Position numbers and translations under genes: made by a program. A stretch of DNA of 33,115 bases. It comes from Escherichia coli. GTDB lineage: Bacteria > Pseudomonadota > Gammaproteobacteria > Enterobacterales > Enterobacteriaceae. The stretch lies in NCBI RefSeq assembly GCF_003334385.1, contig NZ_QOWN01000049.1; one strand, written 5' to 3'. The notes beneath the pieces were generated by a model. The model ran no database searches and was not told where the DNA came from. It saw nothing but the letters and a program-made list of their open reading frames with translations. Below, in pieces: positions 25,516-27,486 of this stretch (the stretch's first letter is position 1; the number at the start of each line of letters is the position of its first letter).

Positions 25516-27486
25516 ATGAGCAAAAAACACTTTGAACTGATTACTGCCACCAACCGCGCAGAATTCGCTGAAAAAGTTAACAAGCGGTTACAGGAAGGCT
25601 GGGAACTTCTCGGTAATGCCGGTATTGCATCAGAGCCGGGAGTCCCCTGGTATCTCATGCAGGCTATGGTTTCAGGCAGTGATGACCAGGGAGGCACCAT
25701 TATCACCCCGACATCCGACAGCGAACCGGAGTGGTATTACGTTGTGGTGAGCGCTGGTCAGTCCAACTCTATGGCATACGGTGAGGGGTTACCTCTCCCG
25801 GAAAGTTACGATAAACCCGATTCGCGCATTCGCCAGCTGGCACGCCGCAGCACCGTAACCCCGGGCGGAAAAGCTTGTGCCTATAACGACATCATTCTGG
25901 CGGATCACTGCCTGCATGACGTGCAGGATATGAGCCAGTACAACCACCCGAAAGCCGACCTGAACAAAGGTCAGTATGGCTGTGTGAGTCAGGGATTGCA
26001 CATTGCGAAGCGCCTGCTGCCATTTATCCCGGCAAATGCGGGGATCCTTCTGGTCCCATGCAGCCGTGGCGGTTCCGGCTTTACAACCGGTGATGCGGGG
26101 CAATTCAGCGAGATCGGCGGCGCAACTGAAAAATCCTGCCGCTGGGGAACGAACACGCCGCTGTACAAGGATTTAATCAGCCGCACAAAAGCAGCGCTGG
26201 CGAAAAATCCGAAAAACGTCCTGCTGGCCGTCTGCTGGACACAGGGCGAGGCAGATCTTGAGAAAGAACAAAACGCCGCACAGCATAAAGATCTTTTCAC
26301 AGCCATGGTGAAGCAGTTCCGGGCTGACCTGGCCGATGTTGCGAAGCAGTGCAACCAGGGCAACCCTGAAAGCGTGCCGTGGATTTGTGGAGATACCACC
26401 TACCACTGGAAAAAAACCTACGAAGCACAGTACGCAACCGTGTATGGCGGATACAAAAACAGCACTGAGAAGAATATTGTTTTTGTGCCTTTTGTTACGG
26501 ATGAGTACGGGAAAAACACCCCAACAAACGAGCCGACAGAAGATCCGGATATTGCGGAAGCGGGTTATTACGGTGCCGCATCCCGCAGTAGCGGAAACTG
26601 GGTAAGCCATCTGCGTGGAACGCACTTCAGCTCATGGGCCCGCCGGGGCATTATTGCCGATCGCATGGCGTCAGCAATCCTGCTTAACGTCGGCCGCACG
26701 CTGCCATTTATTGCGGGTACAGAGCCGGAACGCGTGGCAAAACCATCACAGGATGCACCGGGCGGCATCAGTAAGCCATCTTCACCGGAAGCAGAACAAC
26801 CGGCAGTCAGACCGGGGCCGGTCACGCTCATGAGTCTGCTGGCATCATCTCCTGAACTGGAAAGCCAGGGCTGGACGCTGAGCGAAGGCAAAAACGGGGC
26901 CAACACACCAAAACAACTGAAAGACATGCTGATCGGTGATGAGGAAGCAACAGGGAAAAAAGCCCTGAAACTGACCAAACAGGAAGGCAATACCTGGTAT
27001 CTGGAGCATAAGGCCGGTAATGGTGCTGACCTTCTGAAAAATGGCGGGACTGTAAGTTGCCGATTCAAAATCGAGGGTGAGCTGAAAAAAGACCAGTACG
27101 CAATGGCGATGTACTGGAAAACATCAGCATTACCGCAGGATGTGAAATTACTGGGGGCAGATCCAAATAATTTATTGCTCTCATTCTTTCTTCAGACAGA
27201 CAGCGCAAACCTGAATCTGATGTATCACAAAACGCCAAACGAACAACTGGGAACCTTTGGTCAGTTCAATAACAACTGGCACACCATAGCGTTTCGTTTT
27301 GCGGGAAACAACAGCACCCAGGTAACACCGGTTCTGGATGGCGTGGACGGAAAACCGTTCATGCTTTCCACATCAAAAGCCGATGTTACCAACGACACGT
27401 TACGCGTGACCGATATCACGTATCGGCCGACCTATACCGTACTGATTGACAGCCTGAGCGTTGTCGTAAATCAGCCACCGGCATAA
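25516..27486 (+). CDS. NanS-p-like sialate O-acetylesterase (DUF1737-like N-domain + SASA/SGNH esterase + C-terminal domain)
   Basis: 656 aa; SGNH/SASA nucleophile motif VVVSAGQSNSMAYGEG; N-terminus resembles the DUF1737 domain of prophage NanS-p esterases as recalled; aggag RBS; follows the lysis cassette. Confidence 0.75.
   Translation: MSKKHFELITATNRAEFAEKVNKRLQEGWELLGNAGIASEPGVPWYLMQAMVSGSDDQGGTIITPTSDSEPEWYYVVVSAGQSNSMAYGEGLPLPESYDKPDSRIRQLARRSTVTPGGKACAYNDIILADHCLHDVQDMSQYNHPKADLNKGQYGCVSQGLHIAKRLLPFIPANAGILLVPCSRGGSGFTTGDAGQFSEIGGATEKSCRWGTNTPLYKDLISRTKAALAKNPKNVLLAVCWTQGEADLEKEQNAAQHKDLFTAMVKQFRADLADVAKQCNQGNPESVPWICGDTTYHWKKTYEAQYATVYGGYKNSTEKNIVFVPFVTDEYGKNTPTNEPTEDPDIAEAGYYGAASRSSGNWVSHLRGTHFSSWARRGIIADRMASAILLNVGRTLPFIAGTEPERVAKPSQDAPGGISKPSSPEAEQPAVRPGPVTLMSLLASSPELESQGWTLSEGKNGANTPKQLKDMLIGDEEATGKKALKLTKQEGNTWYLEHKAGNGADLLKNGGTVSCRFKIEGELKKDQYAMAMYWKTSALPQDVKLLGADPNNLLLSFFLQTDSANLNLMYHKTPNEQLGTFGQFNNNWHTIAFRFAGNNSTQVTPVLDGVDGKPFMLSTSKADVTNDTLRVTDITYRPTYTVLIDSLSVVVNQPPA

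Follow-up and report, generated by a model that had tools for sequence, protein, structure and literature searches.

The question raised by this locus is what a sialate O-acetylesterase does among the late genes of a P2-like prophage. NanS-p esterases have so far been viewed as a trait of lambdoid or Shiga toxin (Stx) prophages, feeding enterohaemorrhagic Escherichia coli (EHEC) on the sialic acid of mucus. In the stretch of E. coli DNA analysed here (33,115 nucleotides (nt) of contig NZ_QOWN01000049.1, assembly GCF_003334385.1, referred to as the window), a gene starting with ATG at positions 25516..27486 of the plus strand encodes a NanS-p-family protein of 656 amino acids (aa), and this gene lies between the spanin genes and the tail completion gene R of a P2-family prophage. 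Sequence comparison makes it highly probable that the gene is part of a functional esterase cassette of the NanS-p family, placed in the late operon of this prophage, and that the enzyme would be made late, be released by lysis and de-O-acetylate sialic acids.

The family assignment was obtained from solved structures, Pfam, PHROG and protein clusters. Among the solved structures, E. coli NanS (YjhS, 3PT5) was aligned to aa 70-389 of the esterase (E=1.2e-114) and the C-terminal domain of NanS-p (6YP6) to aa 434-652 (E=1.4e-63), and as sequence matches both are far beyond chance. Pfam identified DUF1737 at aa 3-52 (E=3.4e-8), SASA at aa 148-274 (E=1.6e-12) and DUF6645 at aa 507-620 (E=3e-44), and phrog_143 covers the protein end to end (E=3e-297). 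The esterase is 100% identical to cluster P0001, which has 277 member sequences and carries in one source the name 'sialate O-acetylesterase [Escherichia coli]'. NCBIfam gave zero family matches for the protein, and in a megablast search the gene matched none of 50,697 phage records; relatives surfaced by protein-level searches only. By these comparisons the open reading frame is a member of the NanS-p family with an architecture of three modules, all encoded on the plus strand: an N-terminal DUF1737 domain of a Peduoviridae-specific clade (aa 1-56, 25516..25683), an SGNH/SASA catalytic domain (aa 70-392, 25723..26691) and a C-terminal lectin-like jelly-roll domain, DUF6645 (aa 434-656, 26815..27483). 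In the AlphaFold2 (AF2) model, with a mean predicted local distance difference test (pLDDT) score of 71.5, the N-terminal domain and the C-terminal beta-sandwich (436-651) are predicted with confidence, and both linkers are disordered (aa 55-68 and 401-434). The N-terminal domain is modelled as a strand (5-11), a helix (14-26) and a hairpin of two strands (30-40/43-53), with block-mean pLDDT values of about 76-85. An earlier note on this DNA, made from the sequence alone, had described the 656-aa reading frame with a GQSN motif (aa 81-84) and a DUF1737-like N-terminus and had proposed a comparison with NanS and NanS-p; the description was confirmed, and the structure matches given above supply the similarity to SASA/SGNH esterases. 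The lectin-like domain and a companion gene, encoding a DUF1378 protein, had been overlooked in it.

The catalytic blocks of the esterase are GQSN (aa 81-84), RGGSGF (184-189), TQGEAD (242-247) and THFSS (369-373), to be compared with the published NanS blocks GQSNA, RGGSAF, MQGEFD and R-x-SHFS (PMC10792757); in 3PT5, which is 337 residues long, GQSNA is found at residues 17-21. Ser83 and His370 (codons at 25762-25764 and 26623-26625, plus strand) are invariant among 120 homologues, and in a 38-sequence alignment G81-N84, R184, G185, Q243-E245, D247, R367 and H370 are invariant. In the predicted active site, Ser83 of GQSN would be the nucleophile and His370 of THFSS the base. A Ser/His/Asp triad, as expected in the earlier note, is not what the family leads one to look for: 3PT5 has been grouped with structures in which the catalytic acid is a main-chain oxygen (PMC10792757), so that the expected catalytic unit of the esterase is a Ser-His pair.

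By gene content and order, the prophage is of the P2 family (Peduoviridae), and nanS-p and the DUF1378 gene form a 2.4-kb accessory cassette between lysC and R. A prophage locus (L001) of the uropathogenic (urinary) E. coli strain EC2 shares 97% identity with the window, starting at about position 7,900 of the latter. The annotation of L001 by the Prokaryotic Genome Annotation Pipeline (PGAP), together with PHROG, revealed portal and terminase genes on the minus strand, then the GPO scaffold, the P2-type major capsid protein (21394..22488 in the window), gpM, gpL, gpX, holin, endolysin, i-spanin and LysC, followed by the esterase, DUF1378, gpR, gpS, gpV, W, J, I and H. This matches the tested P2-family gene set and order, Q P, then O N M L X Y K lysB lysC R S V W J I H. 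In two related loci, L007 and L008, Pfam identified Phage_cap_P2, Phage_GPO, GPL, tail_X, GpR and tail_S. The lysis genes of the window, all on the plus strand, code for a holin in the position of P2 gene Y (24153..24443; phrog_1350, E=1.4e-24; a PGAP coding sequence of L001 maps here), an endolysin of the lysozyme family (24427..24966; phrog_7, E=1.6e-47; PGAP 'lysozyme' in L001), an i-spanin in the LysB position (24963..25397; phrog_214 Rz-like spanin, E=5.5e-26) and the o-spanin LysC/Rz1 (25297..25512; phrog_456, E=1.8e-21; PGAP 'Rz1-like lysis system protein LysC'). The P2 backbone restarts, again on the plus strand, with the tail completion protein gpR (27888..28358; phrog_65, E=2.8e-54; Pfam P2_Phage_GpR on the L007 and L008 homologues) and with gpS, involved in virion morphogenesis and tail completion (28355..28990; phrog_26 and phrog_36427; PGAP 'phage virion morphogenesis protein'). 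The nearest deposited phages are Peduoviridae, namely Klebsiella phage ST16-OXA48phi5.4 (Reipivirus), Enterobacter phage phiT5282H and Escherichia phage P88 (Xuanwuvirus), and the flanks of the cassette, joined without the insert, map colinearly onto all three genomes. The site is empty in ST16-OXA48phi5.4, where gpR starts 0 nt past the spanin gene, and in P88, where it starts 137 nt past it. Compared to these phages, bases 25513..27887 (2,375 nt) are thus inserted DNA, and the placement of the esterase between spanins and gpR given in the earlier note holds.

The second gene of the cassette codes for the DUF1378 protein, a small membrane protein of 54 aa with a hydrophobic N-terminus (27551..27715, plus strand; phrog_494, E=2.4e-23; PGAP 'DUF1378 family protein'). 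A homologue with 50% identity over 54 aa lies directly 3' of nanS-p in the Stx2 phage VT2-Sakai, and DUF1378 also follows nanS-p in L008, a locus of a second P2-like lineage, in the Mu-like locus L009 and in 68 of the 76 informative IMG/VR loci. For Stx2a phages, DUF1378 and DUF826 reading frames were described between nanS-p and S (Pascal et al. 2023, PMC10462455). DUF1378 appears to be dispensable in P2-type carriers, since the gene is decayed in the prophage of strain SCU-172 (L004) and missing from L007 and the O104:H4 loci.

The junction of lysC and the esterase gene reads CAGGAGTAAACGATG, with the lysC stop codon 3 nt before the esterase ATG and an AGGAG sequence located inside lysC. A scan for the sigma-70 consensus identified no promoter-like site upstream of the esterase; over 5.7 kb it returned 1 site, inside the 3' end of the esterase gene, against 3.1 expected by chance. 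No plus-strand terminator was identified after the esterase, the sole strong hairpin (27771-27791) having its T-run on the opposite strand. In the homologous prophage of O104:H4, 23 nt separate nanS-p from gpR. In P2, genes R and S are transcribed from the late operon that starts at O. The tight packing against lysC, the missing promoter, the short gap in O104:H4 and the P2 late operon together suggest that the esterase shares its transcript with the structural and lysis genes of the late region. The term moron, used in the earlier note, consequently fits in part: the cassette is extra DNA between genes that are adjacent in relatives, but a promoter or terminator of its own was not found in these scans, and the start codon follows the lysC stop by 3 nt. 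The N-terminus of the esterase is not hydrophobic, so that no secretion signal is inferred and exit from the cell would depend on phage lysis.

For the lambdoid relatives, nanS-p was shown to be induced together with the late genes and stx (PMC10462455), and recombinant NanS-p enzymes were shown to de-O-acetylate Neu5,9Ac2 and mucin glycans (PMC8065619). These two papers (PMC8065619, PMC10462455) also bear out what the earlier note had said of lambdoid Stx prophages, namely that they encode NanS-p enzymes which remove O-acetyl groups from the sialic acids of mucin. For the window, the proposed course of events is that the esterase gene would be transcribed in lytic growth only, by read-through of the P2-type late operon that also serves the essential genes R and S, and that the product, devoid of a secretion signal, would be released from the cell at phage lysis, either free or attached to the capsid through DUF1737, both forms being considered. 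Once outside, the enzyme, directed to glycans by its C-terminal domain, would free mucin-derived sialic acids of their 7-, 8- or 9-O-acetyl groups (converting Neu5,9Ac2 into Neu5Ac), and the sialic acid would become usable for surviving lysogens and their kin, as was shown for lambdoid NanS-p.

Several points weigh against this proposal. Beside blocks II and III the esterase has odd substitutions, with RGGSGF in place of RGGSAF in most homologues and TQGEAD in place of MQGEFD in NanS, and at position 242 it has Thr where at least 90% of the aligned homologues have Met. The AF2 model is of low confidence near the catalytic loops (aa 83-100 and 327-376), which are too uncertain for the active-site geometry to be checked from the model. 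The promoter scan covered sigma-70 consensus sites only, and an Ogr-type or weak internal promoter lies outside its reach. Finally, in view of the finding on the phi24B capsid described below, a free public-good enzyme may be an incomplete account.

Compared to known systems, the lambdoid NanS-p proteins (933W z1466/L0105; phi24B vb_24B_21, which is gp84; VT2-Sakai orf42) have the same DUF1737, SASA and DUF6645 domains as the window esterase, and in both cases the gene is found in the late region adjoining the lysis cassette. VT2-Sakai NanS-p is about 69% identical to the window protein in the catalytic and about 53% in the C-terminal domain, and DUF1378 comes next in both. The lambdoid proteins differ in the N-terminal domain, which is 30-35% identical and falls into a separate clade, and the Tyr42 of phi24B is not conserved in the window protein; the overall identity is about 55-60% at most. 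The phage records with a protein-level match, 347 in number, all appear by their names to be Stx-converting or other lambdoid phages, with roughly 55-60% identity or less. The carrier of the window gene is a Peduoviridae myovirus instead of a lambdoid phage, and the gene is located between spanins and gpR, whereas lambdoid nanS-p is located between Q/stx and holin S (VT2-Sakai, 434, PhiR12_2; PMC10462455). Since the lambdoid gene is thereby upstream of the lysis genes, the analogous post-lysis position that the earlier note had assumed does not exist. Chromosomal NanS has a homologous SGNH domain with the same Ser-His blocks, but neither DUF1737 nor the lectin-like domain, both of which are present in the window esterase. 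The NanS gene is part of the chromosomal nanCMS operon and not of a phage operon.

Two further types are closer in one respect or another. The NanS-p of P88-like prophages (WP_000202135.1; O104:H4 strains 2011C-3493 and C227-11) occupies the same site, between lysC and gpR, as in the window, and this type was also identified in ST131, O103, O111 and the phages vB_EcoM-705R2 and vB_EcoM-569R5. It is 626 aa long and belongs to the same N-terminal clade (54-57% identity), with 71% identity in the catalytic and only 37% in the C-terminal domain; DUF1378 is missing, the gap to gpR is the 23 nt mentioned above, and the major capsid protein is 59% identical to that of the window. A NanS-like esterase of Mu-like prophages (P0099/P0060, 689 aa) is 73% identical in the catalytic and 56% in the C-terminal domain (values for L009) and is followed by DUF1378 and DUF826. 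In this protein, DUF1737 is replaced by an unrelated N-terminus of about 110 aa, and its gene is located at the prophage's accessory end, beyond the genes for tail-fibre assembly and invertase. Loci of this kind, with a 689-aa esterase, were found in L009 (8001-10707) and also in L054, L075-L077, L083 and L088. In one locus, L056, the Mu-type N-terminus occurs with a lambdoid-like terminase 7 kb downstream.

A comparison of the single domains with the window protein revealed a mosaic. Among the P2-type carriers, L007 is 98% identical in the major capsid protein, 73% in the N-terminal, 79% in the catalytic and 37% in the C-terminal domain; the corresponding values are 98%, 77%, 66% and 39% for L004 from SCU-172, and 84%, 49%, 68% and 55% for L008. 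For the lambdoid phage 434, the N-terminal, catalytic and C-terminal domains are 35%, 71% and 34% identical, and for VT2-Sakai the N-terminal value is 30%. The window protein's N-terminal domain is 46-77% identical to that of other P2-type alleles and 30-35% to lambdoid ones, and the N-termini fall into a lambdoid cluster ('MAFKHYDVV..'), a Peduoviridae cluster ('..EPGxPWYLMQAM') and the unrelated Mu type. Across the 10 pairs formed by five P2-type carriers, N-domain identity tracks the backbone proteins (r=0.6-0.9); for the catalytic and C-terminal domains no such correlation is seen (r about -0.3 to 0). L004 and L007 show this most clearly, with 99% identity in the major capsid protein, 89% in the N-terminal, 63% in the catalytic and 30% in the C-terminal domain. 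This suggests that the enzyme and lectin parts were horizontally exchanged and that the N-terminal module stays with the phage. The convergent acquisition proposed in the earlier note is therefore better read as an exchange of a homologous two-gene cassette, nanS-p and DUF1378, which appears to have passed among lambdoid, P2-like and Mu-like phages, with a Peduoviridae N-terminal clade that is long-resident. Searched alone against PDB sequences, the N-terminal domain gave nothing meaningful, and a HMMER search with it among 1.84 billion representatives returned frameshifted or truncated NanS-p fragments and weak matches only, with no stand-alone P2-type DUF1737 protein and no alternative cargo.

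The retention of the N-terminal module bears on the explanation that survives best beside the preferred one, which it would refine and not exclude, namely that the esterase is a virion component. The NanS-p homologue of phi24B, gp84, was reported to be an abundant virion protein, the DUF1737 of which (residues 2-57; a helix and three strands) forms a hexamer in the pores of hexons of the T=9 capsid, with Tyr42 as anchor; it sits on the flat face-centre hexons only, and the enzyme part is cleaved off over time (bioRxiv 10.64898/2026.04.10.717836). With this precedent, DUF1737 of the window protein might anchor enzyme and lectin to P2-type capsid hexons, and the phage would be the main beneficiary, which might adhere to O-acetylated sialomucin, pass through it, or be released from mucus in a controlled way after cleavage of the linker. 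Such display is in line with the prediction of the same helix and three-strand fold for the window N-domain, with the position of the gene amid head-completion, lysis and tail-completion genes of a structural late operon, with the strict division of N-domains by phage family (P2, lambdoid, Mu) and with the co-divergence of N-domain and backbone in the five P2-type carriers, in which the catalytic and C-terminal domains do not take part. The anchor residue itself is not conserved, and this speaks against display: the N-terminus of Sakai is of the phi24B type (Tyr42, Gly54, SISSP), but the Tyr42 'tooth' aligns to Ile37 of the window, where the predicted hairpin tip is Pro41-Gly42, followed by a Trp45-Tyr46 pair. 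The dependence of gp84 on flat face-centre hexons also counts against it, because P2 capsids are T=7 and devoid of a face-centre hexon of the phi24B type. In addition, the N-terminus might be retained on account of possible crossover sites in the conserved start of the catalytic domain, and a partition at the level of families may mean recombinational isolation instead of binding specificity.

Whether N-types follow head types was examined further in lambdoid phages. In a first small sample, 434, PhiR12_2 and Stx1_8100, all with a lambda-type gpE capsid protein, share one N-type, Sakai with its Traversvirus head has a second, and P0049, with a ClpP-capsid fusion and a cement protein, a third. 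Then 80 NanS-p loci from IMG/VR were classed by N-type and by head or baseplate module. P2-type N-termini were found with a P2 head in 2 of 2 loci, and Mu-type N-termini with a Mu baseplate in 7 and with a lambdoid-like terminase downstream in 1. Among the lambdoid types, N0 was found with lambda-type heads (9) and a ClpP-fusion head (1), N2 with a ClpP-fusion head (1), and N4 with ClpP-fusion (4) and lambda-type heads (2); the checked lambdoid head markers, exceptions included, are all colinear and downstream. A strict anchor-to-head rule for lambdoids was rejected on these loci, and a weak association was left (Fisher p=0.035, n=17, with 3 exceptions, the loci not being independent), which agrees with capsid anchoring, while the leakiness of the linkage, with N4 on both head types and one N0 on a ClpP-fusion head, disagrees with it. 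Display of the esterase on P2-type virions is thus possible but unproven, and is judged to be rather unlikely. Less probable again is the wider claim that DUF1737 domains are phage-family-specific capsid anchors, with cargo swapped and anchor kept, so that about 7% of sequenced E. coli, O104:H4 and ST131 among them, would yield P2-family particles with a head-borne esterase and lectin. 'SSP' motifs, resembling the sites proposed for the autoprocessing of phi24B gp84, were noted in the window esterase at aa 422-424 (second linker, KPSSPEAE; nt about 26779-26787) and at aa 444-446 (start of the C-terminal domain; nt about 26845-26853). As evidence of autoprocessing they were dropped, being absent from every other P2-type allele examined.

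Compared to capsid display, it appears improbable that the esterase acts on bacterial surface glycans, by de-O-acetylating O-antigen or an O-acetylated polysialic capsule of the K1 type, in a receptor-modifying role that would aid adsorption of progeny phage or prevent trapping in debris. The possibility was raised in a review (PMC8065619), and it could draw on a weak PHROG match of the SGNH core to the tail-protein family phrog_25867 (E=1.4e-5), on extraintestinal carriers such as the urinary strain EC2 and on a serine O-acetyltransferase-annotated gene beside the tail-fibre genes of the O104:H4 P2-like prophage. However, NanS, which is sialate-specific, can be aligned to about 320 residues of the catalytic domain with no large gaps, at the E-value given above, the C-terminal domain matches the lectin domain of NanS-p, and Neu5,9Ac2 and mucin are the substrates of the family members that have been characterised (PMC8065619). 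A tail-fibre, tailspike or baseplate-attachment domain is absent from the esterase, and in the sole solved case the N-terminus is located on the capsid and not on the tail. No support was found for a tail-associated enzyme, which the earlier note had named as the outcome that would contradict it. That nanS-p is a decaying or neutral passenger, acquired by recombination with lambdoid nanS-p copies, is the least probable of all, since, in spite of the decayed DUF1378 partner in the SCU-172 prophage and of the ample chances for illegitimate exchange offered by up to 19 nanS-like loci per E. coli genome, the reading frame is full length with all catalytic blocks intact, the gene is at least 99.8% conserved in 14 genomes, and NanS-p has been kept, at one and the same site, by no fewer than four diverged lineages of Peduoviridae and in 394 of 5,426 genomes.

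The arrangement is not rare. The allele of the window is itself rare, being identified at a nucleotide identity of at least 99.8% in 14 of 5,426 complete E. coli genomes; the prophage lineage of the window is present in 16 genomes, all 16 with a nanS-p gene at the site between lysC and gpR. N-terminal DNA of P2-type nanS-p was found in 394 of the complete genomes (7.3%), in a count for which the N-terminal DNA of five P2-type alleles served as query and in which the matches overlapped a lysC annotation in most of the rows listed. Most of these 394 genomes carry the type of the P88-like prophages in O104:H4 outbreak strains, ST131, O103 and O111. At least four diverged Peduoviridae lineages hold nanS-p at the identical site, and the carriers span commensal, uropathogenic, ST131 and O104:H4 strains. 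In 4,366 of the 5,426 genomes there is DNA with similarity to the catalytic domain of nanS-p, at up to 19 loci per genome and in 49 places on plasmids, and this large pool of homologous nanS-like copies could drive the shuffling of domains. In O104:H4 outbreak genomes, five nanS-like loci were identified by blastn, one of them P2-type. For the O104:H4 strain C227-11phicu, five NanS-p enzymes, all prophage-encoded, are stated in a review to be active (PMC8065619), and the P2-type allele may be among the five enzymes assayed. In the accessible literature, no paper was found that pairs 'P2-like' with 'sialate O-acetylesterase'. The esterase thus joins a known family as a new member, and its setting is undiscussed in the accessible literature, yet widespread among the E. 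coli sequenced. In O104:H4 2011C-3493, the P88-like prophage (L013) with the P2-type NanS-p contains a serine O-acetyltransferase-annotated gene at 17107-17679, on the opposite strand just past the tail-fibre assembly gene, so that one prophage has an acetyl-adding and an acetyl-removing enzyme.

These observations imply that the same cassette has long been settled in a second phage family, at one fixed site of the late operon, with a third, Mu-like, family shown by the related loci. P2-type prophages therefore belong in counts of nanS-p dosage and in models of sialic-acid cross-feeding. The benefit for the host in the gut suggested in the earlier note is kept as part of the account, but a purely host-benefit reading is challenged by the capsid-decorating NanS-p of phi24B (bioRxiv 10.64898/2026.04.10.717836). 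The main interest lies in the family-specific N-terminal module and in the prediction, drawn from the domain mosaic and the phi24B finding, that P2-type virions display the esterase on their heads. If family-specific capsid anchors were true, mucus processing by the virion, beyond host nutrition, would be the selected function, and P2-like phages would gain their first described case of a head decorated with an enzyme.

Among the minor features of the cassette, the decayed DUF1378 gene of SCU-172 (L004 7159-7298) has a premature stop and 68% nucleotide identity to the window. The G+C-rich, terminator-like hairpin at 27771..27791 is directed against the late operon, with an A-run before it on the plus strand and the T-run on the minus strand. 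The A-run and the CCCTCCG..CGGAGGG hairpin are also found 3' of nanS-p in L004 (about 7056-7084) and L007 (about 9951-9976), at other offsets; the hairpin immediately follows the nanS-p stop in L004 and L007, and in the window DUF1378 lies in between. Its role might be to stop antisense transcription or to make the mRNA more stable. As a hallmark of the cassette it was rejected, since it is conserved only in the immediate lineage of the window. Phage 434 is annotated with a minus-strand terminator right after the nanS-p stop (L003 4850-4872).

At the left end of the window, minus-strand host genes from 99 to 4036 resemble dmsC, dmsB and dmsA in the size of their products (a 308-aa reading frame, 205 aa and 814 aa) and in features of the sequence. 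A phage integrase gene follows beyond the dmsA-like gene (4336..5343, minus strand), which places the prophage about 300 nt upstream of dmsA. Bases 1-7,400 are nearly without a match to the EC2 prophage, apart from a 246-nt piece at 7370-7615, and the EC2 prophage adjoins Leu, Cys and Gly tRNA genes and pgsA. A tRNA scan of the window returned zero tRNA genes. These different surroundings suggest that one late region was joined to different integration and early modules. In L001 (28254-35489, a part lying past the right end of the window), a block of sheath, tube, tape-measure and gpU genes is opposite in strand to the baseplate and fibre genes, and gpD and ogr are again on the plus strand; the arrangement of the tail genes in P2 itself is colinear, unlike this strand switch. 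The gpU and tape-measure genes are on the minus strand in L007 and L008 as well. At the right end of the L001 prophage, a Hok/Gef toxin gene was identified.

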